This document shows positions 19,157 to 62,960 of a stretch of DNA of 64,000 nt, piece after piece. The DNA comes from Eledone cirrhosa (taxonomy: Eukaryota). Under the pieces are notes generated by a model that made no database searches, had not been told where the DNA came from, and saw nothing but the letters and a program-made list of their open reading frames with translations. The translations under genes and the position numbers were made by a program. The stretch spans positions 176,452,001 to 176,516,000 of the forward strand of contig OZ024741.1 of NCBI GenBank assembly GCA_964016885.1, written 5' to 3'. How positions within the stretch are numbered: the stretch's first letter is position 1; each line of letters opens with the position of its first letter.

Positions 19157-19344
19157 GGAGGTGGATTGGCAGTATCGGTAGATAGTCGAACGCCATGATT
19201 TAACCCATAGAGTTACGGCCTTTGCCATTCTGAGTTCAAATCCCGCCGAGGTTAACTTTGCCTTTCATCCTTACGGGGTCTATACAATAAAGTACCAGTA
19301 ATGCACTGGTTAATTGCTGGCCTTGTGCCAAAAGTAGAAACAAT
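19157..19344 (+). mobile_element. tRNA-derived SINE, full length
   Basis: A box TGGCAGTATCGG, B box GAGTTCAAATCC, (TTA)n on both sides. Confidence 0.92.
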
Positions 19345-19363
19345 TATTATTATTATTATTATT

Positions 19364-22300
19364 TGCATTTATCTTGCTTTATGTTTATACGAGTTATCAC
19401 CAAGTCACAACCAGTGACCTCAAGAGACAACAAGGTCCGCCATGTTGAAGAAAGAACACACATATTCACACATGCATCCTTAGTGTTTAGACTTGTGATG
19501 TACTTATATTGACAGGATCTTCCTTAGTATATGGGCAGTTCCCATTAGTACTATCTTTTGTATTTCTCCTATACGCGGGTTTCCTGGGATTTGCGATAAG
19601 TAGTCGTTAGACCCCTTAGGTATCATTCCCAGAGCGCCTACAACCACTGGTATTGTTTTAGTTCTCAATTTCCACATTTTTCCAATTTCTATCTCCAGGT
19701 CCTTATACTTGCTCAATTTTTCAAATGTTTTTATAGATACATTCTTGTCTATTGGAACAGACATATCAATTAGCAGGCATACCCTCCTTTGAAAGTCCTT
19801 CAATATTATATCAGGTCTATTTGCATCTATTTTTCGGTCTGTTTGGATGCTAAAGTTCCACAAGATTGAGATGTGATCTTTTTCAAGTATGGGAGGTGGT
19901 TGATGCTCCCACCAATTCTTTTGATGGGGCAGGTCAAAATGCTTGCACATTATCCAATGTATGTATTGTGCAGCTCTGTCATGCCTGTTTAGGTATTCGG
20001 TTGGAGCTATAGGACTGCACATTGAAATTATATGGTCAATGGTCTCTGGTTGTTTTTTGCATACACGGCATAATGGGCTGCACCCATTTTTTATTATGTT
20101 GGCTTGGTAATTTTTTGTTGGCAGACACTGATCTTGTGCGGATATAATCAGTCCTTCAGTCTCCGATTTCAGTCCAGAGGATGCCAACCACTGATGGGTT
20201 AAAGTTTTGTCAACATCAGGATTGTTAGCTCGCTCTGGGTATTTTCCATACAGAGGCTTTTCTTGCCATTTCTTAGCCAGTTTCTGTAGCAGTTCTTTCT
20301 TTGCAGTTACTTTTACCTGCTTTGCTTTTTCTGTGTTTTCCATTTCAGCAGTAAATGGGACTTCTGAAATTTGTAGTCCATTACTGTATCTTTGTGCATC
20401 TTTTGTAATGGAATATGATCTTTTGGTGCTTTCGTGTTTCAAAACGAGTTTGATCATCCAATCATGTGATTCCCTTAGATATGTGGATAATCCAATTGTT
20501 GCAGTTTTCAACGCAATGTCTAACTGGATTAACCCACGTCCTCCTTCTTTCCTAGGGAGATATATTCTATCTATGTCTGCCTTAGGGTGATGCATTCTGT
20601 GCATGGTTAAGAATTTTCGGATTTTTGTATCGAGCCTACGGATCTCTGTGCTTGACCAGTTGATGACATTGTAACTGTAGGTTACTACTGGTATGGCAAG
20701 CGTGTTTATGGCATCGATCCTATTCCTTGCATTCAATTCCGTTCTTAAGATTGCTCTGACTCTGCGGTAACATTCCTTCCTTATCCTTTCCCTCATTGTC
20801 GAGTGCTTGATTCCGTCTCCTTCACAAACACCTAGATATTTGTAAGTTTGTTCTTGATCAAGCTCTCTTATCACGTTCCCCCGATCAAGATTAATGTCTG
20901 AACTCTTCAGCAGCTTTCCTCTGGTGAACGTTGCTTTGGCGCATTTATCCAGTCCAAACTCCATTTTAATGTCATCACTGAACTGCTTCACAGTGGATAA
21001 TAGCCCTTGCAATTGTTCATCATTTTTTGCAAATAGTTTCAGGTCATCCATGTAGAACAGGTGATTAATGGTTTTGTCATAGACTCTATATCCATGTTTT
21101 GTTTCATTGAGCATTTTACTTAATGGTATAAGTGCGATGCAGAATAAAAGCGGTGATAAAGAGTCACCCTGAAAAATTCCACAATTAATGTTAACTTCTC
21201 CAGCTTCCAGTGATTTTGTTTCACTATTCAAAAGGAGTGTCGTTCTCCATGTCCTCATACTGAATGACAAAAACCTCCTGATAACGGGGGATATTTTGAA
21301 AATCTCTAAACATTTTTCAATCCAACTGTGTGGCAAACTATCAAATGCTTTTTTATAATCTATCCAAGCAATCGATAGATTTTTGTGTCTATTATGACAA
21401 TCTTCCAGTATCATTTTGTTAACCAGAAGCTGATCCTTACAGCCATATGAGCCTCGTTTACACCCTTTCTGCTCAATGGGAAATAGGTCATTTGTTATCA
21501 GGTGGTCATATGTGTATTCAGTTAGGACTGATGTTAAAATGTTATACATTGTGGTCAAGCAGGTTATCGGTCTGTAATTTTTGGGATTGTTTGTCTCATC
21601 ATTCTTCGGTAGCAGGAATGTAATGCCGTTAACTAGCCATGATGGTATCTTTTCTGGCTCCTTAACTATTTCATTGTAAAGTTGGGCTAACAGCTCATGA
21701 GACTCTGTGAAGGCATTTATCCAAAAGTTTTGTATTTTGTCTTTTCCTGGGGATTTCCATTTGCTGGTTTTTCTTAGAGCCAAGCGCAGCTGTTCAACTG
21801 TTATATTTTCCCATGTTTGTTCTTCAAGGTGAGCTGTTTCTTTCATTTGTCTGTCTATCCATGGGGCATGTATGTTATGAACTTTTTCTTCGGCCCAGAT
21901 CTTTTCCCAGAATTCTTGCACTTCCTCCTTGGGTGGTATTGATTTAGCAGTTATTGTTGACTTACCAATTTTTCTGTAGAAGTTTCTTTGGTTGTTTTTG
22001 AACATATTATTGTCCTTATAGAATCTAGATCGTTTTTCAAAGCGCCTTATACGAGCAGCTTTGGCCGACACTTTTTGCTTGATTGTTTCTATCAGCATGT
22101 CTATGTCACATGTTGATCTTATACTGTATTTTTTTTTCAATTTTCTAAGTTTAGTTTGTTTAACATGTTCACCTACTTTATAGTTTGTTAAAATTTCTAT
22201 GTCAGATCGGAGAAGGTTTATTTGGCGATTGATGTTATCTTGCCAAGTAGATTTCTTGTGGGAATTCCTTTGTTTTTTCATCTTCACTCCACATAAGTGA

Positions 22301-23340
22301 GTGGTGACTTTAGCCGATGCATAATAGAGATGATTTAAGTCAGTAATGCTTAGTTTGTTTGTGATGATAATGTTTTTGAGAATTATGTTTGTCTTGTGTA
22401 TTATCTTTTGGTTCTGTTTGGAGTTCTGGATCTTAGGGAGGGTGTCTCGTTCCCCCATGTCAGATTCTTTCATTTTCATCCATTCGATCATAATTTCATC
22501 CTTCAAGTTGGCAAGTTCATTCTCATTCATTTCTTTATCATTTACGATCTCATTATTTTCATTTGGAGTTTCATCCTGAGCATGCACTCCCTCCACTTTT
22601 TCGCTCCTTTCTTTAATTTGTTCTGTTGCCAGTGATTCCGCCCCAACTCTGGGATTCGAAGTGTTACAGTTTACCTCGTTTTCACTGACACATGCTTCAT
22701 TTTCCCTTCGCTGACTTTGTGCTACTAGCTTGATCTGATCAATTTCTACATCAGTTAGTAACTTTTTTCTTACAATATTTCTTCGTATATTGGCTAGTTT
22801 GTTACTGTCAATATAGCCTCTGTTTTCGGGATGTTTCTTTTTCCAGTTGATATATGTTTGCTCTGTATTCGATGTATTTGATGGGTAGTACATGGCAGTG
22901 TAGAAAGCCTCAAGGACTTCTTTATTATCTTCCCTTGACCATTTTTCTCTCTTTTTCTTTGGATTTCTTGGTGGTGAGCATGGAGGGCCAACAGTAGGAG
23001 TATTCCGGTTATGGGAGGTCTCCAGCTCCGAAGTGATGGGAAGGTTTGAACCATTAGCTGATTTTTCGACCCCAGTCTGGTTCCTCTCTGAGGGACGCGG
23101 CCCTTTTTTACCCGGGTGACGGCCGATCCGGTATGAGATTTCATCATTAGACATCTACTTTATTTTGTCGCATTTTATCCTTATCCGCCAAGGGGTAATC
23201 TTTTCGTGTTACCACTTCTAGAACGAGTGTCAACCAAGACTAGAGGGGTCGTTCTCCCCTAGAGACATGGCTATTCCCCGCCGGCCGCCATCCCGGTATT
23301 TCTTGGTCACGGGGTTTTCTTTTTGTTGTTTTTTTTAAAT
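19364..23340 (-). mobile_element. R4/Dong-clade non-LTR retrotransposon, full-length copy 1 (5' region may extend to 24250)
   Basis: Single intact RT-RLE ORF, ~140-nt 3'UTR ending in (TAA)n, structured 5'UTR. Confidence 0.9.
19504..23154 (-). CDS. Reverse transcriptase / restriction-like endonuclease polyprotein, 1216 aa, intact
   Basis: [52 protein letters not shown]; CCHC CRVCKKQPETIDHIISMC; RHD, NRPDII, LIDMSVP and KLSKYKDL (PD-(D/E)xK RLE). No APE domain. Confidence 0.95.
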   Translation of the reverse strand: MSNDEISYRIGRHPGKKGPRPSERNQTGVEKSANGSNLPITSELETSHNRNTPTVGPPCSPPRNPKKKREKWSREDNKEVLEAFYTAMYYPSNTSNTEQTYINWKKKHPENRGYIDSNKLANIRRNIVRKKLLTDVEIDQIKLVAQSQRRENEACVSENEVNCNTSNPRVGAESLATEQIKERSEKVEGVHAQDETPNENNEIVNDKEMNENELANLKDEIMIEWMKMKESDMGERDTLPKIQNSKQNQKIIHKTNIILKNIIITNKLSITDLNHLYYASAKVTTHLCGVKMKKQRNSHKKSTWQDNINRQINLLRSDIEILTNYKVGEHVKQTKLRKLKKKYSIRSTCDIDMLIETIKQKVSAKAARIRRFEKRSRFYKDNNMFKNNQRNFYRKIGKSTITAKSIPPKEEVQEFWEKIWAEEKVHNIHAPWIDRQMKETAHLEEQTWENITVEQLRLALRKTSKWKSPGKDKIQNFWINAFTESHELLAQLYNEIVKEPEKIPSWLVNGITFLLPKNDETNNPKNYRPITCLTTMYNILTSVLTEYTYDHLITNDLFPIEQKGCKRGSYGCKDQLLVNKMILEDCHNRHKNLSIAWIDYKKAFDSLPHSWIEKCLEIFKISPVIRRFLSFSMRTWRTTLLLNSETKSLEAGEVNINCGIFQGDSLSPLLFCIALIPLSKMLNETKHGYRVYDKTINHLFYMDDLKLFAKNDEQLQGLLSTVKQFSDDIKMEFGLDKCAKATFTRGKLLKSSDINLDRGNVIRELDQEQTYKYLGVCEGDGIKHSTMRERIRKECYRRVRAILRTELNARNRIDAINTLAIPVVTYSYNVINWSSTEIRRLDTKIRKFLTMHRMHHPKADIDRIYLPRKEGGRGLIQLDIALKTATIGLSTYLRESHDWMIKLVLKHESTKRSYSITKDAQRYSNGLQISEVPFTAEMENTEKAKQVKVTAKKELLQKLAKKWQEKPLYGKYPERANNPDVDKTLTHQWLASSGLKSETEGLIISAQDQCLPTKNYQANIIKNGCSPLCRVCKKQPETIDHIISMCSPIAPTEYLNRHDRAAQYIHWIMCKHFDLPHQKNWWEHQPPPILEKDHISILWNFSIQTDRKIDANRPDIILKDFQRRVCLLIDMSVPIDKNVSIKTFEKLSKYKDLEIEIGKMWKLRTKTIPVVVGALGMIPKGSNDYLSQIPGNPRIGEIQKIVLMGTAHILRKILSI

Positions 23341-23699
23341 TGTTATTATCATGAGTGGTTCCTTAATGTGAGCATTGCGTGGCTTAAGAATGAAATTATT
23401 AATAATTGTCTCCACTCCAGGCCAGCAATCACCCAGTGCATTACAATAATATAATATACTTTTTGTTGTAGTTGGCTGTTATTGCTGCTGGCTATGTCGG
23501 TGGTGGTGCCGGGGCTTTTTATATTGTTGGTGAGGAAGGGGTGAGCCAGCAGTCCCATAATTGTTGATGTAGACATTTGTCCGTGGCAAGGTTACCAAGT
23601 CAATCTATTTATATCTTTTGCTAGCCTCTCTCTTGTCTAGTGCTACCACCACCTTCCCTTTTCTCTCTCAAGTTAACAGGGGAATAGTGTCAGTAGCAT

Positions 23700-24250
23700 T
23701 GAATGAGTGGTGGCGGCGATGATGGATGTGGTGGTGTTGTGGTTACTGATATAGTATCTATGAGTTTGTGTTCGTATGTTTAATATATATTTTCATTATA
23801 TTTTGTGTTGACATATTCCCGTAAAATTTGAATTAAACATTTTTTTAAATTTGAGACAATAATAATAGTAATTATTATTATGATGCCGGTGAAGTTGCCA
23901 TTATATTTAGTGTGATGGGATAGGTAGTGTATCAAGTTTCTGGTGTTGGTGAAATTGAAATTGCCGCTGTTCTATATAGTGTAGACAGAGGGTGTTTTGT
24001 TCCATTTATAACCATTTTTTTTTTTTTTTTTTTTTTTTTTTGAATACAAAATATATAATACAAAATTGAATATTTGAGCGATACAACAATATAATATGGA
24101 TCCGAAACTTTATGGGACCTCATTCGGTGCCTTTATGCAACATTTGTGCTAAGAATTGTTCTTTCACAATTGATTTAAATATGTTAAAAATCAAAAAACT
24201 TACGGGAGCAATTTCGTGACGTTCTACCACCTCGTGCGTCTTCTTCCCTT
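23700..24250 (-). promoter_or_regulatory. 5' leader module shared with 42860-43290 (putative internal promoter / 5'UTR)
   Basis: Shared blocks: GTTTCTGGTGTTGGTGA, CTATATAGTGTAGACAGAGG, CCATTTATA.CCATTTT, TTGAATATTTGAGC, TTTCACAA.TGATTTAAATATGTTAAAAAT, AAAACTTACGGGAGC and CACCTCGTGCGTCTTCTTCCCTT. The homology is certain; the function is inferred. Confidence 0.6.
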
Positions 24251-24503
24251 CTTCTTCTTCTTCTTCTTCTTATTATTATTATTATTATTATTATTGACGA
24301 AAGTGGATGTACGTTTTTTGAAGCTCCGTGAGTAAGCAATTTTTGAGGATTAATTGTAGAGAATTGTTTATTTTTTGTACCGCTGAAGCATTATAAGACA
24401 TTAATTTGTATCCTGTGAAGGAATAACTCATAATATTTGGGCCTTTTGGCCCAAATATTTGAACTTTATTTTGAAAAAAAAATAATTTTTTTCTCAAAAA
24501 AAC

Positions 24504-26414
24504 ATGGCGGAGCCACGCCCCCTAGAGGCGGGTCTGCTGTCGTGCAACGGCGACTTGAGCGTTGAGAGGAGAGGTGAGGCGAGGAGCGCCACCAGCACGA
24601 ATGTGAGCAGCGACAGTGCCAGCACCAACGGGCCGAGCGGCGCGGAAGGTGGTAACAGCGACAACACCAACACCAACAAGCCGAACAGCGCAGAAGGTGG
24701 TAATAGCGAGAGCACCAACAAAACGAACAGCACAGAGAGTAATAGTAGCGACAGCAACAGCACCAACAAGGCCAACAACACAGAGGGTAACCACGACACA
24801 GGGGAGAACAACAACAGCAATAGCAGCAGCAACACCAACAAGAACAACAACAGTGACAACACCAACAAGAACACCTTCGCTGCTGTGGCAGCGGCTAAAA
24901 GGAGACCATGCTACAGCATCGACTTAACCAACAGAGAGGAAAAGTTGGCCCAGGCCTGGAAAATCATAAATCAAGAGCAGACCTGGGCAAACTTAACTGT
25001 CCCGGCAGAAGCCATTGAGGCAGTGGAAAAAAGAACGGTGCATTTCAGATGCATCTCAGTAGAGACAAAGAGGGCAGCGATAATCGCCCAAGCTGACATA
25101 GAAGCCGCACTGAAATACATCAGAGAGGACACAGACTTCATAGAGAGGGGCAGGCAATACGGCACCGTTTCGGTGCTGTTCAAGTCTGAAGCCCTCGCTG
25201 TGAAGCATTCAATGACCCCTTGCAAAACCAGCAAGGTCATAATGTACCCCTCCCACATGGGAAAACGAATAGCACGTGTGCGCATTCCCAGGATTCCACC
25301 AGGACTTGATATGTGGTGGCTCCTGGGTTGCGTAATCGTGGAAGGAACGGATACAGTCCCGGTAGAGGCAACGAGAACTGCCAGGGACGACTGGTCCGGG
25401 GTTGATCTGGAGATACTGCTCCAAATCAGACCCGAAAACGTAAAAACAATCCCGGACCACATCCGCCTCCAAAACGGGAGGGTGTTGCATATAATGACTG
25501 AGGGCAAAAGGCCGCATTGTTTCCTTTGTGGGGAAACGACACACTTGCGAGCCTTCTGCCCTCAACTGCCGAAAAGCGCAAGGGGTCGAAAGATTCCACT
25601 GCTGGCGACGCCGGGACAAGGACCACCAGCAACACCGTCAACAATGGAACCACCAAAATTGCACACCCAGGGGGGAAACGAGGAAAGCTCTCCCATTCCC
25701 CCTCCCCCCCAAAATACACACACGAACAAGAACATAAACACTCACTCAGACACAAACACGCTCACAGCCACAGACCCCTCATCCTCCAGCAGTGAAGATG
25801 AGGGAAAACCAAAGTCCCCCAAAATACAAAAAACAAAACACAAAAAAAAAAGAAATCCACAAAGCACAAACACCCCCACAAAAAAAAATACACACACCAC
25901 CCACACAAACATTTTCCCCACAGCATCACCAACACAACCACCAAAATCCCCCAAACGCAAACAAGCTAAACAGACACAAGAACAAATAGACACACAAACA
26001 TCAGAAACTACAGACACCCCACCCACAACAAACGCAGACACAATAGAAATAACACTAACAAAGCTATCACCACCACAATCACACGAACAAATAAAACCCG
26101 AGCAACAAAACATTAAAAACTTCGTGCTTGCCAGAAGGGCCAACAAGGAATTGATGGCCCATGTAGCACGAAGCACAAACATCGAAAAAGACGGGGAAAC
26201 ATTTGAAGCGAGCACATTTCGCGTACCAGATAATTTGCTTCTGATGCGAATGTCGCTCGCTTCATACAAAGAAATTCGAAAGAGCTTTCCTCGGGATGTG
26301 GGAACCCCGAACGTAAAACCCACGTCAAGACTATTAAAGGGGTTCCCAAAAGAAACCCCACAAACCATGGAGGTCGAACCACCCAACCTTCACAAGACCC
26401 CGGAAGGTAAGTAA
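24504..26414 (+). CDS. Tx1-like ORF1 (gag-like nucleic-acid binding protein), 636 aa
   Basis: N/S/T low-complexity N-terminus, RRM-like middle, CX2CX4HX4C knuckle CFLCGETTHLRAFC, K/T/P-rich linker. Lies directly upstream of ORF2. Confidence 0.9.
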   Translation: MAEPRPLEAGLLSCNGDLSVERRGEARSATSTNVSSDSASTNGPSGAEGGNSDNTNTNKPNSAEGGNSESTNKTNSTESNSSDSNSTNKANNTEGNHDTGENNNSNSSSNTNKNNNSDNTNKNTFAAVAAAKRRPCYSIDLTNREEKLAQAWKIINQEQTWANLTVPAEAIEAVEKRTVHFRCISVETKRAAIIAQADIEAALKYIREDTDFIERGRQYGTVSVLFKSEALAVKHSMTPCKTSKVIMYPSHMGKRIARVRIPRIPPGLDMWWLLGCVIVEGTDTVPVEATRTARDDWSGVDLEILLQIRPENVKTIPDHIRLQNGRVLHIMTEGKRPHCFLCGETTHLRAFCPQLPKSARGRKIPLLATPGQGPPATPSTMEPPKLHTQGGNEESSPIPPPPQNTHTNKNINTHSDTNTLTATDPSSSSSEDEGKPKSPKIQKTKHKKKRNPQSTNTPTKKNTHTTHTNIFPTASPTQPPKSPKRKQAKQTQEQIDTQTSETTDTPPTTNADTIEITLTKLSPPQSHEQIKPEQQNIKNFVLARRANKELMAHVARSTNIEKDGETFEASTFRVPDNLLLMRMSLASYKEIRKSFPRDVGTPNVKPTSRLLKGFPKETPQTMEVEPPNLHKTPEGK

Positions 26415-26443
26415 ACCTTTCCTCTCCCATTCATCCTGCCAGC

Positions 26444-29400
26444 ATGGCCATAAGAGTAGGAAGTTTAAATGTTCGTGGCCTGGGGTCGCCCTGGAAGCAA
26501 GGTCACTTGCTCAACGACCTCAGGTCACTAGGAATGGATGTAATTGCCATCAGCGAGACCAGAATTTCCGACACACGCGCACTGGCGCCGATTTTCGACG
26601 ATTATCAGATCTTTGCATCTGTTAGTCGGCCGGGAATGGGAGGTGGAGTGGCTGTGCTGTTTAGGAAATGTCTGGATCTCGAGGTAAGGTCAATCTTCCG
26701 GGATCCTGACGGAAAGTTGGTGGTCCTGGACGTGAGCAATAGCGAAGGTGGTGCCTTTAGACTGGTGGCCGTCTACGCCCCTACTGGGGCCGGTCGGCCG
26801 GACTTCTTTAGGCGCCTGGAAAACTTTCTGCTTACGTCTCGCCCTTTACTGTTAATAGGGGATTGGAATGGCATCTTAGAAGCACGCTGGGATTGTGTGG
26901 GAGTATCTGATAGGAGCGGGGGGTGCAAAAGCCTCAAGTACCTGATCAGCCAGTTTCAACTGTCTGACAGGTACCGACTAGATTTCCCTAATGCGCCAGT
27001 ATGGACCTGGACCAATCGCATAGGGTCATCTAGATCGTACATAGATAGGATTTTCATTAGGAAAAGAGATAGAAATAGTGTAGGATGTCCACATTTTAAA
27101 ACGGTTGCCTATTCAGATCACAAGCTTGTGATCTGTATGGTCGACCTAGATAAGACACGTAGGTTAGGACCTAGCTACTGGAAGCTAAACATGTCGTTTC
27201 CGGCACGTAAAGCTTACAGGGACCGGGTCAACAACTTAGTTAAGCAAAAGTTGACAGGGGGGGTTGTCAACAACAGGTGGTGGGGGGCACTCAAAAGAGA
27301 GATTAGAGCAACCTCGATAGGATTTAGCAAAGAAGTAGCAATAGAGAAAAATAGAAAGGAGGAGGGGCTGATAGCTAAGTTAGACGAGGCTATTTGTAGT
27401 GGCATTGCAACAGACGTGCTAGCGGCGAGAATGGCACTAGACCATTTCTTCAATGCGAAACACGAAGGTTGCATTGTCAGAGCTAAGGCGCGTGCTCTGA
27501 GGAACGAGGGAACCAAAGCTGCCCGATGGGCTCGCTTTGCAGAGACGCAGCGTGGAAATAAAACCACAATTCGGTCTTTGACGGATCGAGATGGACACGA
27601 ACTGAGCGATTCCAAGCAGATGTGTGAGGTTTTCGCCAGCACTTTGCTCGATTGTTCGGGAGGATGGGTGAGTCGGAGACGGCGGCGGACTTCAGTCCCT
27701 ACCTCGACGGCTTGCCACGCCTCTCGACGGCCGACGCTGAGCGCTGCGAAGAGCCGATAACATCAGTCGAAATTCAGGACGCCCTTGTCGGCTGCTCGAG
27801 TCGCAAGTCACCCGGTTTGGATGGTCTGCCCTACGAGCTTTACGTAAATATGCCAGACTTGTTCTCCGATCTCCTCGAAGCGCTCTACTGCAACTGGCAG
27901 CAGAACGGGAGCATTCCCAGTTCTGTGAGCCGTGGCGTAGTGACGCTGATAAGGAAAGACGAGAACAAGAGGGACACACTAGATAATTTCAGGCCCATAA
28001 CCCTGCTCAACACAGAGTTTAAGATTTTGGCCAAGGTGTTAGCGAAAAGGTTGGCGCTTGTCGTCAAAGATTTGGTTGGGGAGGCGCAAACTTGCGCAAT
28101 CCCGACCAGGTCCATACACGACAACCTCCACCTCATGCGATACATCATAGAGAGGGTTGGGTGCAAACCTGGCTTCGGTGGGGCTCTGATCAATTTAGAT
28201 CAATCGAAAGCATTCGATAGGGTCGACCATCGGTACTTGGAGGCTGTCCTCGAGGCGGCTGGCTTCGGCCCCGTCTTCAGAAGCTGGATCGCTGCAATGT
28301 ACAGCGGCATCTGCTCGGTGGTCAAAGTTAATGGCCACCTCTCGGAACCGTTTCAGATCTCTCGATCGGTCCGTCAAGGGTGCCCTCTCTCCTCACTTCT
28401 GTACGTATTGACTCTTGAGCCTCTACTGCGGAAGCTGGAGTTGTTGCAGGGCATCCCGCTCGAACCGGGACGCAGAAAGGCTGCGTCCGCTTATGCGGAC
28501 GACATCACCGTGATGGTGTCGGACACCTCGGAAATCGAGGTGATCCGCACCCATTTGGAGGAATATGAAAGGTTGACGGGAGCAAAACTTAACCCGGAAA
28601 AGTCGGTGGGCTTGCAGCTCGGCACCTGGAGAGGCAAGTCCATGCCGTCCAACAGCGTCGTTGGGCGCTGGACAGACGGACCGGTAAAGTTGCTCGGGGT
28701 TTGGTTCGGACCAGACCTCCAGGTGGATAAGAATTGGGACGAGGTGACGAGCAGGATAGCCAACCTCACCCAGAAATGGGCTGAGAGAAAGCTATCACTG
28801 AAAGGGCGGGCGGAGGTGGCGAACGCGTACATCGCGTCCGTCATCTACTACCGCCTGACCGTCGTGCCTTGCCCCCGTCCACGCCTCGCCAATTTGGAAC
28901 GGCTCCTTTTCAAATTTTTGTGGAGGGGACGGGTCCCGTTGGTGAGGCGGTCCATCTGCTGCCAGCACCCTCTTCGTGGAGGGCTGGGCATGCCGTGGCT
29001 AATGATGCGCAGACATGCGCTGAGGCTGCGACATCTCCAGATATTTTGCCTAAACGGTGAACAGGTGTGGTCGCCGTTTGTTAGACGGGCCTTTCCGCAG
29101 CTCATCTCTTTGACTGAGCTGCAGTCCTGGGTCAAGAAGAGACCGAGACTGGGCGACTGGCATCTGGAATGTTGCCAGGCGCTCACTGCACTCTGCAAGG
29201 TGGGCAATGCGGTCAGTGGAACTTCCACTCAAGATTTCTATAGAGGATTAGTGGAGGGCAAGTGCGATGACGTACTAGGAGAGGCTCTGGGCGTCAACGA
29301 AGTAGAACTGACCAGTATGTTCCGGAGGACTTTCGAGCCGGGGACGATGGATAACTTCCAGAAATCCCTCGCTTGGCAGTGCTACCGGGGGGCGCTGCCG

Positions 29401-29862
29401 GTTCGGGATAAACTCTACAGGCACGGAAGTGCTGTCAGACGAACCTGCCCGAGATGCGCGCAGAGCGACGAAACCGTTCTGCACGCACTCGTCCAGTGTC
29501 CGTGCATTGCTGACTTGTGGGGTTATGTCGAACAGCTATTGTCGCGTGTAGAACGGATCCGGCTATCGTCCGAGTCCATAGTGAAGATTGACCCGCCGCC
29601 TTCTTTTGGTCAGGAAGGGCAGGCAATTTTCCTCTGCCTGGTGGCAGTAGCGAAAGAGGTTGCATGGTGGACCAGGTTGAAAGGACTGAAGACAGACACT
29701 TTTCTCTTCGGCCAATCCCTCATCAACTTCTTCAAGTTTCACTTGGAAAGGAAGGTGAGGGTGGAGAGAGAAGTGCTGCCCCCCAGTACATTTACTGAAA
29801 GGTGGGTGAATGTGGCGAGAATGGCCCGCGTGAGTGGGCCTACTCTGATCATGCGCCTGTAG
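26444..29862 (+). pseudogene. Tx1-like ORF2 (APE endonuclease - RT - zf-RVT) with one frameshift at ~27630
   Basis: SLNVRGL, ISETR, VYAP, IGDWN, SYIDRIF and SDH (APE); KSPGLDGLP, NFRPITLLN, LDQSKAFDRV, VRQGCPLS and YADD (RT); CPRC..ETVLHALVQC. Adding one T at 27630-27633 joins the 438-aa and 736-aa ORFs. Confidence 0.93.
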
Positions 29863-30136
29863 GCTGGTGAATTCGAGAAGGAGAGGGGTGCCCTTCCCGG
29901 GTGCCCTAGGAGCGTCGGGTGGTTCAGGACTGGTGGGGTGCTTGAGTCAACCCTGGGTGGTGATCCCTCTTATTGGGGAACTTTCATTGTTGTATTTTTA
30001 TTGTTATTTTGTTTTTTTGTTATTTATACTTACTCGATCTCTATGTAAACCCCCACTGTCCCTGTCTATTGTGTTGTCCCCTATATGTCGGCCCTTGTGG
30101 CCAATAAATGAAATCATTATTATTATTATTATTACT

Positions 30137-32924
30137 GTTCTTTGAATCTCAGTCATTGGTGTTATTTAACTGGAAAGTTTGTTGAAATGAATATCAAGCC
30201 ACTGCCTGCAACCTCAGATATTCAGGACGTATCGGAGGGTTCTTGCTGTTCCCAGCAAGCATGCCTTTGAAGTGTTCCAAAAAGCGGGGCGGAACCAATT
30301 TTCTTTAACCATCCTTGGAAACTCTTTGAGATAGTACCTAGTGCGCATATGACAGTCGGGTCCACTTTGACCCATGGCAGTTCCAAATCCTTTCTACCTC
30401 CCACATTAAGTCCTGGTATCGGTTAATTTCCCCCCTCTCCTTCTCTTGCCCTGTCATGTCGAATGGGCAGACTACATCCACAATCAGGCATGATCTTTTT
30501 CCCTTGTACAAAAACACCAGGTCAGGTCTATTGTGTTCCAGTTTCTTGTCCGTCTGTATCCTAAAATCCCACAGTACCTTTACCTGGCCTATGCTCATAC
30601 CACTTCTCAGAATGTGGTAAATTGTTTACTTTGCATAGGTGCCAGTGGATCACCCTGCCCGTCATGTCTCCAGCCTTTATAGTGAGTCTGGACTATGTGT
30701 TTACACTCGGATACAATGTGAGCCACAGTCTCCTATCTCTCTCCACAGATCCTACACAGTGGGCTAGCCTCCTTGTAATTATGGTGTTTGAGCCACTTCG
30801 TTTTGAGGGCCTGCTCTTGCGTAGCCATTAGCATTCCTTCTGTAGCCATTTTAAGATCTCTTTTCAACCAGTTCCATGTCTGTGGATCTCTAAATTCAGT
30901 TTTCTCAAAGAAGGCACTATGAAGGTTGCTCTTTCTCCTTGTTGTTATTTTGTTATTTCCTCCTTGCACAATCCCTGGTCTATTGTCCGCTCCTTCAGTA
31001 CAATTCTGAGCATTGTCTCCCTACTATCAGTCACGTATTTGCGTAGGTTGTTTTTCTCCATCTGAACACATTCCTCTATGCTGATAAGACCTCTTCCACC
31101 TTCAGATCTCCTTAAGTAGAGTCTATCAACATCACTACTTTTGTGGAACATGTTGTAGATAGTCAATAGCTTCCTAGTCTTCCTATCCATTTCGTTTTGT
31201 TCAGTAACATTCCATCTCAGAATCCCCGCACTGTACCTAATAATAGACACAGCTCGGGAATTTACTGCACTTATGGCATTCCTACTGTTCAGATGTGACT
31301 TTAGTACGCTCCTTACGCTCCGAATGTATTCAGATCTTAACAATTCCCTCATTTTTTTTGTCATTGATGCCATCAGCCTCCAGAACACCTAAATATCTGT
31401 ATCCCACTTCAGTATCAATTTCCTTTATCATCTCACCTGTTGGTACCTGGATTCCCTTGGTTCTGCTCAATTTACCCCTCTTCATCACAAGGACTCCACA
31501 CTTACTAATACGAAATTGCATACATATATCATTGCGCAAAATTCGGACAGTGTCAACAAGCACACCCAACTCCCTCTCACTCTTCCCGAAGAGCTTAAGA
31601 TCGTCCATGAATAGGAGTTGATTGATGGTAAGCTCTCCCTTTCCCAAATTGTATTCTGCTCTCACTTTTCGCAGTATAATAGTCAGGGAGATCAGGGCAA
31701 GGACAAACAACAGAGGGAAAAAACTATCTCCTTGGAAGATACCTCTCTTGATCCTCACGCCTCCCAAGGATTCTCCGCCCGATGTTAACTCTGTTTTCCA
31801 GGACTTCATACTCTTGCTCAACAACGGTCTGATGTTATCTGCTACCCTGAAGATCTCTAGGCTTTTGGTTATCCAAGAATGAGGTACCATGTCGAATGCC
31901 TTTTTGTAGTCTATCCATCCCATGGCAAGACCAATGTGTCTCCTTCTGCAATTCCTCATTACCATCTTATCAATAAGTAACTGGTCCTTTGTACCACGGG
32001 ACTTCTTTCAGCATCATTTCTGTTCGTCCGGTAACAAGTTGTTTATGTGGAGGTGATGGTAGATTTCCTTAGACACAATGCTTGTTAACAGTTTCCACAT
32101 TACGGACAGACATGTAATAGCTCTATAGTTGGTAACATCATTACCCTTGGTTCGGTCTTTCATCACCAGAACCGTGGTACCTTTTGTCAACCACTCTGGT
32201 ACCTCACCTGACATCAAGCAGTCATTGAACATGGTTGTCAGTTTCGGGTGGAGGGATGTTATATTTTTAATCCAATACCCCTGAACACCATCTGGGCCTG
32301 GTGATTTCCAGTTGGTTAGTTTTCTGGCCTGCCCCTTAAGAGTTTCAACTGTGATACTCAAATCAGTTTGTTGGTGTGCTTGTTCACTAAACTCCTTTTG
32401 TACTGTCTCAATCCACACTGCCTGATCATTATGTTCAACATCCTGCTCCCATATTCCTCTCCAGAATGTCTTAGTTTGTTCCGCCTCACGGATCAAGGCT
32501 TTGCCTCTTTCTTTCCCTTCAAGCTGTCCAAACAACATCTTCTGGTTGTTGTCAAACATGCGGTTCTGTCTATACTGACTGGTATCGCCTAATCTTTGCG
32601 CTCTTTGCTACAATGCGTTGCTTTAGTTCCTTTATGATAATATTTATCTTTTTCCTCCTAGTTTTATACTTTATTTCCAGTCTATTTTTACTGTCTATGT
32701 TCTGTAGGGTCCCATTCAGTAGGGACTTAAGCTTTCCAATGTCATTTCTCATTTCCCTGATTTGACCATTCAGTCGTTTCTTCCACCAATGTTCTGATCT
32801 TTCTTGTTTGTTGTTTCCTCTCGCTTTTATCCAAGTAATTTGCTCACCGTATTTAATGTTGCTTTGAGGATATTGTTGCGCTGGTGAAGGTTCCTCGCCT
32901 CAAGGTATGGGATGATTTTGTTTA
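30137..32924 (-). mobile_element. R4/Dong-clade LINE copy 2, 5' truncated and frameshifted
   Basis: [36 protein letters not shown] and HNRPDLV; closely similar to 38771-41610; truncated at a TTTA microhomology into (TTA)n. Confidence 0.95.
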
Positions 32925-32933: not shown

Positions 32934-32965
<32 letters not shown>

Positions 32966-35900
32966 GGCGACCTACGTAGTAAATCGTATCATCGTGAGCT
33001 CCGCAAAGGTTTGTTATTTTCAGTTGTTTAAAATTGCCAGTCATGGAAAATTTTTATTGTTAACTATATATAAGTGCACATACATTTTTATCTGAAAAGG
33101 ACACCCAAAAAGATTGGGGCCTTGAGCCCAAAATTTAAACTTTTATAATTATCAAACAAAAATTGTTCTTTGAAAAATCATGGATGACTCAGAGTCACTC
33201 CTTCCTCACAGACTAAAACCTCACACCGCCACCACCATTGTAAATATTACTACGTTTGCCAACACTAAAAATATAAGCAGTACCAATATTTTAAATTTGT
33301 CTCAGGCAGACATTCATTCCCGCCATTACCAATGACTGCAGGTGTTAAAGCCACCACCACCGCGACAACAGAAACAAAAGAAAAAAATAAATTAACTCGT
33401 GATATCGAAATGAATTCAACCAAAATGAACTCTTCCACACCGAACACCACTGACGCCACCACCACCACAACTGAAACTAAAATTAATAATAACAAAAATA
33501 ACGATAACAACAACAGCAACAATGACATTAAGAAAACCACCCTGAGTTTTGCCAGAGTAGCAAAACAGTGCGAAGCATTTCAGGTAACTGAGGAGGAATT
33601 AGAAGAAGCTAAAAAGATGCTAAAGAAAGATGGGTACAGGGTCAGATCACACACCTAATAAAATGGAGCATCGGCGCCTATGCACCGTGTCTTATCGAAC
33701 AATTAATAAACAATCGCGCCGAGTGGAACGGGCATCCGAGTCCCAAATCGTAAAAGCTTTGGGACATGCGTGGGCAAAAAAAAACCCACATCAGACGTGG
33801 GCAGAAATATGGCACCGTGGACCTGTTCTTTGAAACACCACAGGAAGCTAGAGAACACTCCATGGCCCCATTAAGAAGTGACGACTTCACACTCGTCCCA
33901 AGCTATTGTGGTCTGAGACTCGTAAAGATCAGGTTGACCCACGTTCCACCGGCCATCGAAATTCCCTGGCTAATAGCTGCCGTTCAAGCCGGCATCGAAG
34001 CCAACACCAAGATAATCGAAATAGCGAAAGAAAAGCAGGCGAACTGGTCCGGATCAGGGATGGAGCTCCTGATCCAAGCGGACCAAAGAAGCATTGAGGA
34101 GATCCCAGAGGTTTAGACCTCACTGACGGCAGCGACCTCACCGTAATCGTCGAGGGCAGAAGGCCTAGGTGTGTCGTTTGTGGTGAAGGAACCCACCTAA
34201 GGGCTTTCTGCCCTCAGGCTAAAAGGTTGAGACCACCTCTATTATCCACTCCAGTGACTCAACCATCAACACCACCAGCAGCAGAGATGGCAGCAACAAC
34301 TGTAGCAGCAACAATAGAAGCAACTGTAACAGCAACAACCCCAGCAACAGTAGCAAAACCACCACCACCACCACGCAACGCTCCAGAACTAGCACCAGCG
34401 CTTACGCCATCCACCACGCCTCAACCAAAACCAACGCCTGTTGTGTATTTTCCACTCCCCGGCCTATCAAAACTGAAGACAGATTGTGACGACGAGGAGT
34501 GGGAAACTGTATCAGAAAAAATGGTAAAAAAGAAACCAAAAAAGAAAAAAATTCTCTCCCCCCCCCAAAAAAAAACAAACAAAAAAAAACAACAAAATAC
34601 AGAGGGAAACAAATAAACTATCAAACAAAAAAGTTAGGAGAGATATGCCACCAGCCACACCAGCATCACCAACCCTATCACCACAAACACCAACACCATT
34701 ACCATCATTAACCCCAACACCACCAACACCAACACCACAAAAGTCACCAAAAAGCGAAACAGAAACAAACACACAACAAACGCAAACAAAACAAAACGAT
34801 ACACACTACACAGCATTAAATTTGAACAACAATCAATTATTACACTACATCCAACAATACACCAGCATCACAGAAAAAGACTACACAACAACCCGAAAAT
34901 TCACACCACATCCACACATACAAATCACTCGCATCACACAGAAAACGTACATGACACTAAAACAAAAATTCCCCAAAGACATCGGAGACTTCCGACAAGC
35001 GCCCTCAATGAGAATTTATAAGGACATCCTTCATGAGGAGGCCACAAGCAGTGAAAAGGATTGAAAAAACGTCCTTCCTCTACGAGAAGTAAGGTAAGTG
35101 GTCTTTCCCATCTTTTCCACTCCTTTTCAACATGACCTCACTCAGAATAGGCAGCATAAATGCGCGTGGCTTGGGGTCGTCATGGAAGCAGGGCCACCTG
35201 CTCAACGACCTCAGGTCACTAAACATAGATGTAGTGGCCATCAGCGAGACCAGAATCTCCGAAGCACGGGCCTTCGCACTGATCTTCGGCGGATACGATG
35301 TGTACGCATCTCCCAGCCGTCCGGGATCGGGGGGTGGAGATTATGTGCTTTTTCGGAGAGGTTTGCCATACGGGCCATCTCCATGACCCAGAAGGTAAGT
35401 TGGTGGTGCTGGACGTGACCAGGTTAGTGGCCGCCTATGCCCCGACAGGAGCAGGGCGGCCTGATTTCTTCTGGCGTCAGGGGACCTTTCTTGGAACGTC
35501 CCGCTCTTTAGTGTTAGTGGGCGACTGGAACGGGATCTTAGATGCACGCTAGGATTGTGTGGGATTAGTGGATAGGGGAGGAGGGTGCAAGAGTCTCACC
35601 AACCTGCTCAGGCGTTTTGAACTGTCTGACAGGTACCGATTGGATTTCCCGAATGTTTAATGTGGACTTGGACAAATCGCATAGGGTCATCCAGATCATA
35701 TCTAGATAGAGTATTTTGTAGGGAAATAAATAGGTCTAGCATAGGCTGTCCACAATTCAAGATAGTCAGCTACACGGACCACAAATTCGTGATCTGTGTG
35801 CTTGACTTAGATAGGCTTCATAGTCGAGGACCCGGCTACTGGAAGCTAAACGCGTCCTTACCAGTGCGCAAGGCCTACAGAGACCGGATTAGCGAACTAG

Positions 35901-38741
35901 TTAAGCGGGCGTTGACGGCGGCTATCGTCAACAACAAGTGGTGGTTTGCTCTGAAAAGAGCAATTAGAATAGAGTCCATTAGGTTTAGTAAGGCTTTAGC
36001 AATAGAGAAAAATAGAGCAGAGGGAGAATTAGTTAGAAAATTAGACGAGGCGCTTTGCAAAGGCATCGCGGCCGACGTACTTGCGGCGAAATTGGCCCTC
36101 GACAAGGCTGCTTTGTCAGAACTAGGGTGCTTGCTCTCAGACACGAGGGGACGAAAGCCGTTCAATGGGCCTGAGTGGCGGAGGCGCGTCTTGGCAACAA
36201 AGCCACGATCCGGTCTTTGGTGGACCGCGACGGGCGCATGCTACTAGATCCCGGGCAAATGTGTGAAGCTTTTCAGCGACACTTCGCTCAACTGTTCGGG
36301 GGCAGTGGCGGGCCGGATCGAGGGATGGACTTTAGTGTCTACATCGACGGACTGCCGCGGCTCTCGGTCACTGAGGCGGAGTGTTGCGAAAAGCCGATAT
36401 CAGCCGCTGAAGACGGGAGGCAATGACTGGCTGCACAAGGGGTAAATCGCCTGGTTTGGATGGTCTGCCCTATGAACTTTACGTACAAATGCCAGACTTG
36501 TTCGGAGGCCTCTTAGCGGGCGTCTACTGCAACTGGCAACAGAACGGGAGAATTCCAGCTCTGTGAGCCGAGGAGCGGTGGCGCTGCTGAGAAAGGATCC
36601 GAACAAGGGGGATAACATAGATAATTTCCGGCCCATAACTCTGCTAAACACAGAGTTCAAGATTTTGGTCAAGGTGCTAGCAAAGAGTTTGGCGCTTGTC
36701 GTTGGTGGTCTGGTGGGAGAGGCGCAGAAATGCGCCATTCCCGACAGATCCATCCACGACAACCTCCACCTCATGCGATACATCGTAGAGAGGGTAGCTA
36801 GGGAACCTTGGACGTGTGGGTCTTTGATAAATTTAGATCAGTCGAAAGCCTTCGGTAGGGTCGACCATCGTTACCTAGCGGCAGTCCTGAGGGCGGCTGG
36901 CTTTGGGCCCGTCTTCAGAGGCTGGATCGCTGCCATGCACAGCGACATCTACTCTGTGGTGAGAGTGAACGGTCACCATTCGGAACCGTTCAACATCATG
37001 CGCTCGGTCCGCCAAGGATGTCCCCTCTCGTCCCTCTTGTACGTATTGACTCTCGAGACATTACTGCACAAACTGGAGACATTGAGGGGGGTCCCGCGCG
37101 AACTAGGATGCGGAAGATCCGTGTCAGCATATGCGGACGATGTCACCGTAGTGGTGTCGAACGCCAAACACATCGAGGCGATCGGCACTACACTAAGAGA
37201 ATACAAAGCGGTGACAGGAGCAATGATCAACCAGGAAAAGTCAGTGGGCCTGCAGCTCGGCACCTGGAGAGGCAGGTCCATGACGTCCAACAGCGTCGTC
37301 GAACGCTGGACGGACCGACCGGTTAAACTGCTAGGGGTCTGGTTCGGTCCGGACCTCCACACGGACACAAACCGGGACGAGGTGACGAGCAGGATGGCTT
37401 CTCTCACCCAGAAATGGGCTGAGAGGAAGCTATCCCTGAAAGGTCGAGCGGAGGTGGCTAACGCGTACATCGCGTCCGTCATCTACTACTGCCTGACCGT
37501 CGTACCTTGTCCTAAGCCCCGCCTGACTGCGCTGGAGCGTTTGCTCTTTCGCTTTTTGTGGAAGGGACGCGCTCCGATGGTCTGGCGGTCCATCTGCTGT
37601 CAACACCCGCTACGTGGAGGGCTGGGCATGACATGGCTGATGATGTGCAGACACGCGCTCAGGCTACAACATCTACACCTCTTCCTCGACGGTGATCAGG
37701 TGTGGTCGCCGTTTGCTAGACACGTTTTTCCCCAGCTCGTCTCCTTGACGGAGCTGCAGTCCTGGGTCAAGCGAAGACCGAGAGGGAGCACTTGGGGACT
37801 GGAATGTCTTCAGGCGCTCACAGCCCTTGACCAATCGGGCAATGTGGTCGGTGGAAACTCCACCTCGGCGTTCTATAGAGGATTAGTGGTGGGGAAGAGT
37901 GACGACGTACTTGGGGAAACTCTAGGCGTCGACGAAAATCAACTAGCCAATCTCTTCGGAAGAACTTTCGGGCCAGGGCCTATGGACAACTTCCAGAAAT
38001 CCCTGGCCTGGCAGTGCTACCGAGGAGCCTTGCCAGTTCGGGATAAACTCTACAGGCATGTAGGTGCCGTCAGCCGGGCATGTCCGAGATGCGCACAGGG
38101 CGACGAAACCGTCCTGCACGCACTCGTCCAGTGTCCGAGCATTGCTGACTTGTGGGTTTATGTCGAACACCTGCAGTCACGTGTAGGACGGATCCAGCTA
38201 TCAGCTGAGTCCATCGTGAGGATTGCCCCGCCCTCTTCCTTTAGCCGGGAAGGGCAGGCAGTTTTTATCTGTCTGGTGGCCATGGCGAAAGAGATAGTAT
38301 GGTGGACACGTTTGAAAGGGCTGAAGACGAGCACTTACCTCTTCGGTGATGCCCTGATTAACTTTTTCAAATTTCATTTGAAAAGGAAAATCAGGGTAGA
38401 GAGGGAAGTGCTCTCTTCCCAGCATTTTGTTGAAAGATGGGTGAGAGAAGCAAGTATGGCCCGAATGAATGGGCCTTCTCTGAGTATGTGTCTGTAAATT
38501 AAAGGTGGAAAACTGGGAGAGGGCACTTGCCCTGGTGGTCAGGGCCACTGTGGTCTTTTAATGGGCTTTCTCCACAAATGTCCCTTGGAAGTCTCCCCCC
38601 TATTGGGGAATTTTTCTTTGTTATTTTATTTCAACCTCTGTTTTTTTACACGCAGAAATGCCCATTTGTACCGTCCTGAATTGTCCTGTACTGTCCTTAA
38701 TGTCTACTTTATGTGAACCCTTGTGGTTAATAAAGAAAACA
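32966..38741 (+). mobile_element. Tx1/L1-clade LINE, full-length copy 2, degenerate
   Basis: Broken ORF1 (RGQKYGTVDLFF; CVVCGEGTHLRAFC ~34170) and broken ORF2 35132-38497; AATAAA and (ATT)n tail. Confidence 0.95.
35132..38497 (+). pseudogene. Tx1-like ORF2 with several frameshifts and stops
   Basis: SINARGL/ISETR, VGDWN, SYLDRVF/TDH, and a 644-aa RT-zf segment with NFRPITLLN, RQGCPLS, YADD and CPRC..H..C. Confidence 0.93.
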
Positions 38742-38770
38742 TTATTATTATTATTATTATTGTTGTTATT

Positions 38771-41700
38771 CCTTGAATCTCAGTCATTGATGTTGGTTAA
38801 CTGGAAAGTCCGTTGGATTGAATATCAAGCCACTACCTGCAGCCTCAGATATTCAGGACGTATCGGAGGGTTCTTGCTGTTCCAAGCAAGCATGCCTTTT
38901 GAAGCGTTCCAAAAAGCGTGAAGGGGCCACTTTTCTTTAACCAGCCCTGGAAACTTTTGGAGATAGTCCCCAGTGCGCCTATGACAATCGGGATCACTTT
39001 GACTTCATGGCAGTTCAAAATCCGTTTTACCTCCCACTTTAGGTCCTGGTATCGGTTAATTTTCTCCCTCTCCTTCTCTTGCACTCTCGTGTCGAACGGG
39101 CAGGACACATCCACAATCAGACACGATCTTTTTTCTTTGTCCACAACCACCAGGTCAGGTCTATTGTGTTCCAGTTTTTTGTCCGTCTGTATCCTAAAAT
39201 CCCACAGCACCTTCACCTGACTGTTCTCCATCACCGCCTCTGGCCTATGCTCATACCATTTCTCAGAATGTGGTAAATTGTTTACTTTGCACAGGTGCCA
39301 GTGGATCACCCTGCCCATCACATCGTGTCTCCAGCCCTTATAGTGGGTCTGGGCTAGGTGTTTACACTCGGACACAATGTGAGCCACAGTCTCCTCTCTC
39401 TCTCCACAGATCCTGCACAGTGGGCTAGCCTCTCCCTTGTAGATATGGTGCTTCAACCACTTCGTTTTGAGGGCCTGCTCCTGCGCAGCCATTAGCATTC
39501 CTTCTGTAGCCTTTTTGAGGTCTCCTCTTCTCAACCAGTTCCATGTCTGTGGATCTCTAAATTCAGTTTTCTCAAAGAAGGTACTATGAAGGGATTTTCC
39601 CTTAAGGCTGCTCTTCCTCCTTGATGTTATTTCCTCCTTGGACATCCCCTGGCCTACTGTCCCCTCCTTCAGTACAGTTCTGAGCATTGGCTCCTTACTA
39701 TAGGTCACGTATTTGTATAGGTTGTTTTTCTCCATCTGAACACAGTCCTCTATGCTGATAAGACCTCTTCCACCCTCAGATCTCCTTAGGTAGAGTCTAT
39801 CGACATCACTCCTCTTGTGGAACATGTTGTAGATAGTCAATAGCTTCCTAGTCTTCCTATCCATTTCTTTTTGTTCAGCAACATTCCATCTCAGAATTCC
39901 CGCACTGTACCTAATAATAGACACAGCTCGGGAATTTACTGCGCTTATGGTATTTCTGCTGTTCAGATGTGACTTCAATACGCTCCTTACTCTCCGAATG
40001 TATTCAGTTCTTAACAATTCCTTCATTTTTTTGTTCTTTATGCCATCAGCCTCCAGAACGCCCAAATACTTGTATCCTTCCTCAGAGTCAATTTCCTTTA
40101 TCATCTCACCTGTTGGTATCTGGATCCCGTTACTTCTGCTCAACCTACCCCTCTTCATCACAATGACTCCACATTTACCAATACGAAACTGCATACATAT
40201 ATCACTGCTGAAAATACGGACAGTGTCAACAAGCACATCCAACTCCTTCTCACTTTTCCCGAAGAGCTTAAGATCGTCCATGAAGAGGAGGTGATTGATG
40301 GTAAGCTCTCCCCTTCCCAGCTTGTATCCTGCTCTCACTTTTCGCAGCATAATGGTCAAGGGCATCAGGGCAAGGACAAACAACAGAGGGGACAGGCTAT
40401 CTCCCTGGAATATACCTCTCTTGATCTTCACGTTTCCCAAGGATACTCTAGTTGATGTCAACTCTGTCTCCCAGGACCCCATACTCCTGCCTAGCAACTG
40501 TCTGATGTTATCCGCCACCCTGAAGATCTCCAGGCTTTTGGTGATCCAGGAATGAGGCACCATGTCAAATGCCTTTCTGTAGTCTATCCATCCCATGGCA
40601 AGATCAGTGTGTCTCCTCCTGCAATTCCCCATTACCATCTTATCAATAAGCAACTGGTCCTTTGTACCACGTGACTTCTTTCGGCATCCTTTCTGTTCGT
40701 CCGGTAACAAGTTGTTTGTGTGGAGGTGATGGTAGATTTCCTCAGACACAATGCTCGTCAACAGTTTCCACATTACGGACAGACATGTGATAGGTCTATA
40801 GTTGGTAACATCATTACCCTTGATTCGGTCTTTCATTATCAGAACTGTGGTACCTTTTGTCAACCACTCTGGCACCTCACCCGACACCAAGCAGTCATTG
40901 AACATGGCCGTCAGCTTCGGGTGGAGGGATGTTAAATGTTTAATCCAATACCCCTGCACACCATCTGGGCCTGGTGATTTCCAGTTGGTTAGTTTTTTGG
41001 CCTGCCCCTTAAGAGTTTCAACTGTGATACTCAAATCAGTTTGTTGTTGTGCCTGCTCACCGATCTCCCTCTGTACTGTCTCAATCCACCCTGCCTGGGC
41101 ATTGTGTCTAACATCCTGCTCCCATATTCCTCTCCAGAATGTTTTAGTTTGCTCCGCCCCAGGGATCAAGTCGTTGCCTCTTTCTTTCCCCTCAAGCTGT
41201 CCAAACAGCATCTTCTGGTTGTTGTCGAACATGCGGTTCTGTTTATACTGACTGACTCTGTTCTCGTATCGCCTGATTTTTGCACTCTTTGCTACAATGC
41301 GTTGCTTCAGTTCCTCTATGATAATATTTAGCTTTTTCCTCCTAGTTTTGTATTTTATTTCCAGTCTATTTTTAGTGCCTATGTTTTTTAGTGTCCCATT
41401 CAGTAGTGACTCAAGCTTTCCTATGTCATTTCTCATTTCCCCGATTTGCCCACTTAGTCGCTTCTTCCACCACGGCTCTGCTCTTTCTTGTCTGTTGTTT
41501 CCTCTCGCTTTTATACCAAGTAGTTTCCTCACCGTATTTGCTGTTGCTTTGAGGATATTGTTGCACTGGTGAAGGCTCCTCGCCTCAAGGTATGGGATGA
41601 CTTTGTTTACCTTAGCTGTTGTTTCTTTTAACTTTTTCCTGTCTACAAATCTTAGGTTCATAGGTCTCCCACTATCATTGTTCAATTCATCTACCACTAA

Positions 41701-62720: not shown

Positions 62721-62960
62721 AGTGATTATTATTATCATTATAAATAAACATTATCATTATAAACATTAAAGGAATTATGATTCACATGATTTCAGTGATG
62801 TTTTGATGTTTGCTTTCACTGTATGAGTGATGGTGGCTGTTGAGTTGTTATGCTAGTTGTTCTTGTTACGTAAATAATCATGACTAGCGTGGATAGTAGA
62901 AGTTGCAACAGTTTCTCCATGTTTTTCCTCCTTGTATTACTATTATTATTAATATTTTGT

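Follow-up and report, generated by a model that had tools for sequence, protein, structure and literature searches.

Recruitment of new 5′UTRs by LINE retrotransposons is known from mouse L1, in which families with similar 5′UTRs are not monophyletic and 5′UTRs have been replaced repeatedly, also from extinct families, with DNA recombination, annealing at insertion and strand switching by the reverse transcriptase (RT) as candidate mechanisms (Sookdeo et al., 2013, PMC3600994). Replacement of LINE promoters is on record within L1, its source often obscure. L1-group elements use internal Pol II promoters, and a conserved promoter-proximal splice donor in the LINE 5′UTR has been described for the L1 SpIREs (Larson et al., 2018, PMC5860796). 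Chimerism across LINE clades is represented by cattle L1-BovB, formed when an active element inserted into another (Ivancevic et al., 2018, PMC6036668). A different way of starting an element is found in Bombyx Dong and Ascaris R4, in which an HDV-like ribozyme at the 5′ end cuts the element out of a co-transcript (Eickbush et al., 2013, PMC3774820).

Here we describe R4/Dong elements in a 64,000-nucleotide stretch (hereafter the window) of a 3.0 Gb animal genome, that of Eledone cirrhosa. We consider it likely that four or more deep lineages of R4/Dong have as their fixed, exchanged 5′ end the 5′UTR and ORF1 start of an extinct Tx1 lineage, and that these sequences probably act there as an internal Pol II promoter. 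As in mouse L1, similar 5′UTRs are shared by families that are not monophyletic, and the same candidate mechanisms come into question; in mouse L1, however, exchange took place inside L1 or from an obscure source, whereas in the present case the donor can be named, an APE-type Tx1, and is of a different clade from its restriction-like-endonuclease R4 recipients, which among themselves differ by about 60% in protein. The case adds a cross-clade form to the LINE 5′UTR recruitment already known (PMC3600994). With Bombyx Dong and Ascaris R4 our elements share a single ORF encoding RT and a restriction-like endonuclease and, with Dong, a location in TAA repeats, but those elements start with a ribozyme, and ours with Tx1-started leaders of about 1.1 kb in which no ribozyme was detected (PMC3774820). 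Like cattle L1-BovB they are cross-clade chimeras that would go back to insertion of an active element into another; L1-BovB, however, is described as a rearranged copy for whose transcription there is little evidence, whereas here the chimera has become the norm in several families (over 1,600 marked copies; PMC6036668). The leader has a conserved splice-donor-like site near its start, comparable to the promoter-proximal donor of L1 SpIREs (PMC5860796), although at most one copy (L310) looks spliced. Active Dong-R4 elements have been listed for octopus (PMC13282606, PMC9115989), as has L1-Tx1 (PMC13282606), and the available portions of these reports contain no such analysis of leaders. We found no report of Tx1-to-R4 leader capture in the literature; supplements or Repbase/Dfam entries might annotate it.

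Elements of the window

The window is an array of elements seated in (AAT)n runs, with R4-type elements on the minus strand and Tx1-type elements on the plus strand. The R4-1 element has an intact ORF of 1216 aa (19504..23154; RT, CCHC knuckle, restriction-like endonuclease), a 3′UTR with the (AAT)n target run (19343..19503) and a leader of about 1.1 kb in total. This leader consists of the element's own leader (23155..23319), with an GGATGGCG stem-loop motif common to R4-3 and R4-4; a stretch of CAC/AAC-rich low complexity (23320..23912), which holds a SINE fragment (23444-23404) and an AAT/TAT run (23857..23885); and a Tx1-derived module (23913..24250), composed of a Tx1 5′UTR of about 245 nt and a decayed Tx1 ORF1 start. 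Beyond the module lies an (AAG)n(AAT)n target microsatellite (24251..24295), on which R4-1 stands head-to-head with Tx1-A (24294..30114; 5′UTR, ORF1, APE endonuclease and RT), a distant relative of the donor. There follow R4 copy 2 (30137..32921), which belongs to the R4-3 family (88% identity) and is older and 5′-truncated; Tx1-B (32964..38739); and R4-3, with its ORF and 3′UTR at 38762..42221 (ORF 42221-38845, the frame broken near its start in the window copy), the rest of its leader (42222..42959), in which a U-rich, acceptor-like tract with its CAG (end at 42350) lies before the element's own structured leader, and its Tx1-derived module (42960..43289). The old R4 copy 4 (58805..62935) is 5′-truncated within its leader, and the decayed 5′ part of Tx1-C occupies 63157..64000.

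The R4 hosts have RVT_1 as their sole Pfam domain and lack an APE domain, and R2 proteins align to their residues 449-1162, including CRVC..H..C and RPD..D..K. The single ORF, with RT followed by a CCHC knuckle and then a restriction-like endonuclease, is the layout of R4/Dong, and the elements are inserted in (TAA)n, with (AAT)3+ at 83 of 89 junctions on the 5′ side and 74 of 76 on the 3′ side. From domain layout, target and the general classification of such elements, we take them to be members of the R4/Dong clade. Their database homologues are nearly all unnamed, and several of these (P0001, P0121-P0124) are 66-69% identical to R4-1 or R4-3 across the RT-endonuclease region. Tx1-A carries Exo_endo_phos and RVT_1 (Pfam). 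The Tx1 families are abundant (6,006 copies of one ORF1 motif) and use the same (AAT)n runs as R4 in the opposite orientation, the run being present at all 54 of 54 Tx1-B/D 5′ junctions.

Other repeats occur in the array. A SINE-like repeat of about 200 bp, with neither a tRNA nor an Rfam match, lies in (AAT)n antiparallel to R4 (19135-19360, 54836-55052 and others), and it is a fragment of this repeat that is fixed in the young R4-1 leader. The stem-loop of the R4 own leaders contains (G)GATGGCG or GAATGGCG (minus strand; R4-1 23294-23285, R4-3 42319-42309, R4-4 62640-62628), a motif that resembles a YY1 site. A long MITE-like inverted repeat at 2736-2864 surfaced only as a chance Rfam match.

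A module integral to divergent R4 elements

The original prediction was that two R4 copies with divergent proteins and unrelated 3′UTRs share a 5′ module resembling a Tx1 5′UTR. R4-1 and R4-3 have 38.8% identity in a protein alignment of 956 aa, and no relationship is apparent between their 3′UTRs. On the minus strand, AAGGGAAGAAGACGCACGAGGTG opens both modules (24250 in R4-1, 43289 in R4-3), directly behind a run of (AAT)n or of (AAG)n(AAT)n, and their first 23 bases are identical. The predicted common start and long aligned blocks are borne out, although the span of 23700-24250 was slightly generous, as the main block of about 340 nt (about 75% identical; roughly 24250-23913 against 43289-42960) ends near 23913 and only short low-complexity matches (e.g. 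about 42 nt at 85-90%) lie outside it. The motifs quoted for the module are present in R4-1, GCTCCCGTAAG at 24209-24199 and GCTCAAATATTCAA.TTTGTATT at 24079-24057. An ATG about 235 nt from the start is also found, at 24015-24013, but it is the second ATG that is homologous to the ORF1 start of extinct Tx1, at 24005-24003 in R4-1 (with an ACAAATGG context, and heading only a short frame there) and at 43055-43053 in R4-3.

Genome-wide, the best matches to each window module, among the matches listed, pass through the family-specific leader into the matching R4 ORF; such lists lean towards close copies, and we therefore used the first 30 copies by position. A 16-mer from the module has 1,271 exact copies (control, 0), the first 30 of which lead into an R4-3 ORF (19), an R4-1 ORF (10) or neither within 1.5 kb (1), and none into a Tx1 ORF. 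For an older variant of the module (370 copies) the first 30 lead into an older R4-3 body (25), an older R4-1 body (1) or no ORF within 1.5 kb (4), again with no Tx1 ORF. Approached from the R4 side, the own-leader motif of R4-1/R4-4 has 1,206 copies, the first 30 of which are all R4-1; 24 of these carry the module and the remaining six bodies stop within the leader, and no alternative 5′ end occurs in these 30. Samples of this kind represent the first 30 or best 40 out of thousands of copies. Searches with Rfam and ARAGORN gave no match to a tRNA-, 5S- or snRNA-derived head at the module. In two young R4/Dong families, with proteins 39% identical, the module forms the 5′ end as an integral part of the element. 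Behind the module there is no intact ORF1 but a decayed ORF1 start of about 100 nt followed by R4 sequence: the module is Tx1-derived and no Tx1 element itself.

The lineage of R4 copy 4 had been thought to lack the module, which proved mistaken. The window copy is 5′-truncated, with an AAT-rich remnant ahead of the R4-4 own leader, and the family is old, its copies being about 70% identical to each other (29 matches); its longer relatives (L190, L193, L195, L196, L197) carry an older module in which the Tx1 hairpin region is retained.

Homology to Tx1 5′ ends

The predicted likeness to Tx1 5′UTRs exceeds chance. It is weak against the three Tx1 copies of the window (z 1.8-5.9, 100 dinucleotide shuffles) and strong against extinct Tx1 copies (z up to 11.6 and 15.7). 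A profile from 20 Tx1-borne leaders finds the two window modules with E values of 6.9e-14 and 1.2e-6, and a profile from eight active-family Tx1 leaders, chosen without reference to the module, with 0.0011 and 0.0099, as against 7.8 and 2 for controls on the reversed window. The homology of the module to the leaders of Tx1 elements, which have ORF1 and APE-RT, is significant and colinear.

Extinct Tx1 copies were sought with an old R4-borne module as query (32 matches, 30 fetched), and the choice of an R4-borne query biases those found towards close ones. Four of the fetched copies (L212, L213, L229, L236) continue into Tx1 ORF1 and a fifth (L227) into the 3′ part of ORF1 and EN, and a search with L229 added L277, L278, L279 and others. 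In L212, L213, L229, L236, L277, L278 and L279 Tx1 ORF1 lies downstream, in most also EN and/or RT. The extinct copies have T-rich flanks, in contrast to the (AAT)n at R4. One of them, L277, is a complete though decayed Tx1 (ORF1, EN, RT); its opening bases are similar to those of the R4 module. The best blastn alignments to old R4-borne modules are 76-82% identical over 148-185 nt, one of them extending to +325, beyond the ATG, and the homology continues for about 100 nt downstream of the ORF1 ATG. Within the aligned core, the old R4-borne modules (L210, L228, L214, L217, L218) are 63-76% identical to extinct Tx1 leaders, whereas for the young modules of the window identity is 52-59% to these and 40-50% to active Tx1 families. 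Because blastn of the young modules against 30 Tx1 ORF1-motif loci (24 seen in full) gave no match, the active Tx1 families are ruled out as the donor.

Exchange of leaders among R4 lineages

In a leader tree rooted on active Tx1 families, 38 R4-borne rows and L277 form one starred clade (97/95) within a grade of Tx1 leaders, surrounded by those of extinct copies. A single origin of the 38 R4-borne leaders is not rejected (p-AU 0.49), and the base of the R4-borne clade would support one capture, or several from the same Tx1 subfamily, equally. R4-1 and R4-3 leaders are intermixed, and clades of R4-1 only and of R4-3 only are rejected (p-AU 1e-8 and 5e-56); the AU tests were rerun without L230, L284, L067 and the chimeras L062 and L064. 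Two rows labelled R1 in this tree (L230, L284) have bodies without an ORF start, through nested truncated insertion or deletion, and the long or odd rows TxD, TxB, L283 and L281 were excluded from the leader tree and AU tests and placed in a separate tree that includes them. The protein tree, a quick tree with several partial rows, distributes the module-bearing bodies over four lineages (R1; R4; R3/R5/R6; R7/R10) on both sides of its deepest split, the labels R5 and R6 each standing for one contiguous copy and the R7 lineage being backed by two independent copies. Each of these lineages has closer relatives among outside proteins, the bodies being 57-69% identical to them. Leader and protein phylogenies are incongruent.

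Individual copies preserve the exchange itself. L064 and L125 have the same junction between an R4-3 leader and an R4-1 body, and since the junction is common but the flanks differ, this chimera has itself been copied. L062 likewise joins an R4-3 leader to an R4-1 body, at a distinct junction, and L079, an R4-3 body with an R4-1-type segment, looks intermediate. Tree incongruence and chimeric copies establish leader swapping among R4 lineages; the direction of the changes suggests that R4-3 acquired a leader of the R4-1 lineage twice. For three pairs, net divergence in the leader and in the first 360 ORF bases is 0.045/0.009, 0.231/0.042 and 0.287/0.058, about a fivefold difference, and the raw fourfold-site distances for the same pairs are 0, 0.11 and 0.09; these values come from few sites, the second pair being one copy and the third a replacement, and accelerated evolution of the leader is only suggested by them.

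Probable capture of a Tx1 promoter

The Tx1-leader homology, the integral position on R4 bodies, the tree incongruence and the chimeric copies all support the capture. Of the two explanations first offered for the shared module, exchange of 5′ ends between co-targeting clades is the one that stands: the cross-clade capture is real, and swaps are still continuing. As for its route, both clades target (AAT)n, and Tx1 ORF1 starts hold Asn/Thr-coding, AAT-like runs. It is plausible that the Tx1 promoter would drive transcription of an R4 seated in sense within such an ORF1 start, and that the R4 RT would copy this transcript up to its 5′ end. Later swaps may have been favoured by the head-to-tail stacking of R4 families in common microsatellites, where homologous CAC-rich leaders would permit RT template switches or deletions between neighbours, and truncated R4s might also insert into the AAT run of the leader. 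Insertions into this run are observed, as SINEs (L007, L008) and as a truncated R4 of another lineage (L301). The benefit to R4 would be transcription without need for read-through or a 5′ ribozyme.

Tx1 elements, like the L1 group, use internal Pol II promoters, and a promoter role for the module is likely. Its first 120 nt or so persist, with the GTAAG of a splice-donor-like GTAAGT site at +48 (24198..24203, minus strand, in R4-1), while the remains of ORF1 and of the Tx1 hairpin decay; in Tx1 leaders this hairpin lies directly 5′ of the A-run and ORF1 ATG (z -5.9 in Tx1-A, 24410-24480, plus strand), and in the R4-1 and R4-3 modules its 5′ arm is eroded and the 3′ arm left (24057..24079, minus strand, in R4-1). 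Proximal retention of this kind fits transcription rather than ORF1 translation.

One genome here holds donor, recipients, intermediate ages and fresh chimeras, spanning the divide between APE and restriction-like-endonuclease elements. A bolder reading, which we hold about as readily as we doubt, is that the whole R4 clade here changed its transcription strategy by means of the promoter of an unrelated clade using the same microsatellite, and that this promoter outlived its donor and is now a replicator in its own right among R4 lineages, outpacing the synonymous sites of its ORF as in a host-repressor arms race. How ribozyme-type, co-transcribed retrotransposons gain transcriptional independence, and whether common target sites serve as exchange sites for regulatory modules, are questions that can now be put to the test. 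Repeat libraries are prone to mis-splitting or mislabelling these R4/Tx1 families.

Alternative explanations

The module might have a Tx1 origin and be truly swapped, yet be a passenger, with R4 RNA arising from read-through and the 5′ boundary being set by annealing at (AAT)n or by cleavage. We regard this as unlikely, though it is the best of the alternatives. A fixed 5′ junction can also be obtained if read-through RNA anneals to the target via (AAT)n; numerous copies follow the 3′ end of another R4 or face a Tx1 head-to-head, and most R2 elements take upstream target sequence into their RNA (PMC3774820). Module-like extra bases at the junctions point both ways, being found at 23 of 89 R4 5′ junctions (3 from a neighbour's 3′ end), 3 of 44 3′ junctions and 8 of 38 Tx1 5′ junctions, an excess at R4 5′ ends that holds against the 3′ junctions and fails against the Tx1 5′ junctions. 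A passenger would, however, be unexpected on four deep lineages and in 24 of 30 R4-1 copies, and would not call for retention of the proximal part while the hairpin erodes. The first bases of the module are moreover repeated at 5 of 89 junctions (L009, L014, L043, L046, L077), and the first 150 nt of the module do not appear to fold as a ribozyme would, showing no excess folding (z 0.01, 0.89). The Rfam scan of the window gave sub-threshold matches only, mostly microsatellite-driven, and our own strict descriptor of HDV-like ribozymes, run without a positive control, had 0 matches in 16 regions.

More doubtful still is a role in RNA processing, in which the GTAAG donor would remove the ATG-rich leader for translation of the R4 ORF, or bind U1 and protect the transcript. 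The R4 ORF is preceded by some 1.1 kb of ATG-containing leader, 42 of the 62 Tx1 and R4 leaders in the alignment retain GT at the site (11 have AT, a CpG-type decay), and acceptor-like sites lie immediately ahead of the R4-3 and older R4-1 leaders. One R4-1 copy, L310 (1500-1640), joins GCTCCC at the GTAAG position to an antisense SINE end in an acceptor-like position and might be a spliced RNA that was retrotransposed; a deletion at one base of microhomology would also explain it. Among ten non-GT matches genome-wide, none joins the site to an R4 acceptor and nine are point mutants, with a search pattern blind to junctions beginning with A or T. In human L1 a donor owes its conservation to overlap with a RUNX3 promoter site (PMC5860796).

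Capture from Tx1 and subsequent swapping also account better for the trees than do vertical inheritance of the module by all R4 lineages here or transfer from R4 to Tx1, both very improbable and largely refuted by the trees. Every R4 family examined here carries the module, and L277, a Tx1, sits within the R4-borne clade. Modules that are 78% identical nevertheless stand on bodies 39% identical in protein, these bodies each have outside relatives at 57-69% identity, the module includes the Tx1 ORF1 start, and the sequence of L277 downstream of the leader corresponds up to +437 to that of extinct Tx1 copies. The other explanation first offered, a separate non-autonomous element docking at R4 5′ ends, would suit two copies that break into unrelated DNA (L106, L119) but is refuted by the copy counts, as 55 of the 60 position-ordered copies (29/30 and 26/30) have an R4 ORF no more than 1.5 kb downstream, another three stay in R4-3 leader sequence, family-specific leaders go with family-specific bodies, and no copy among the 60 shows a separate 3′ end.

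Two features of the Tx1 elements may be added. In Tx1 family D (seen at L009) there are two hairpins before the ORF1 ATG, one of which includes G-U pairs and has UUCG as its loop; this suggests a role at the RNA level. In Tx1-A (26404-26445) and Tx1-B (35089-35135), both on the plus strand, the end of ORF1 overlaps a GGTAAG donor-like site, and a pyrimidine tract lies between this site and the ORF2 ATG.
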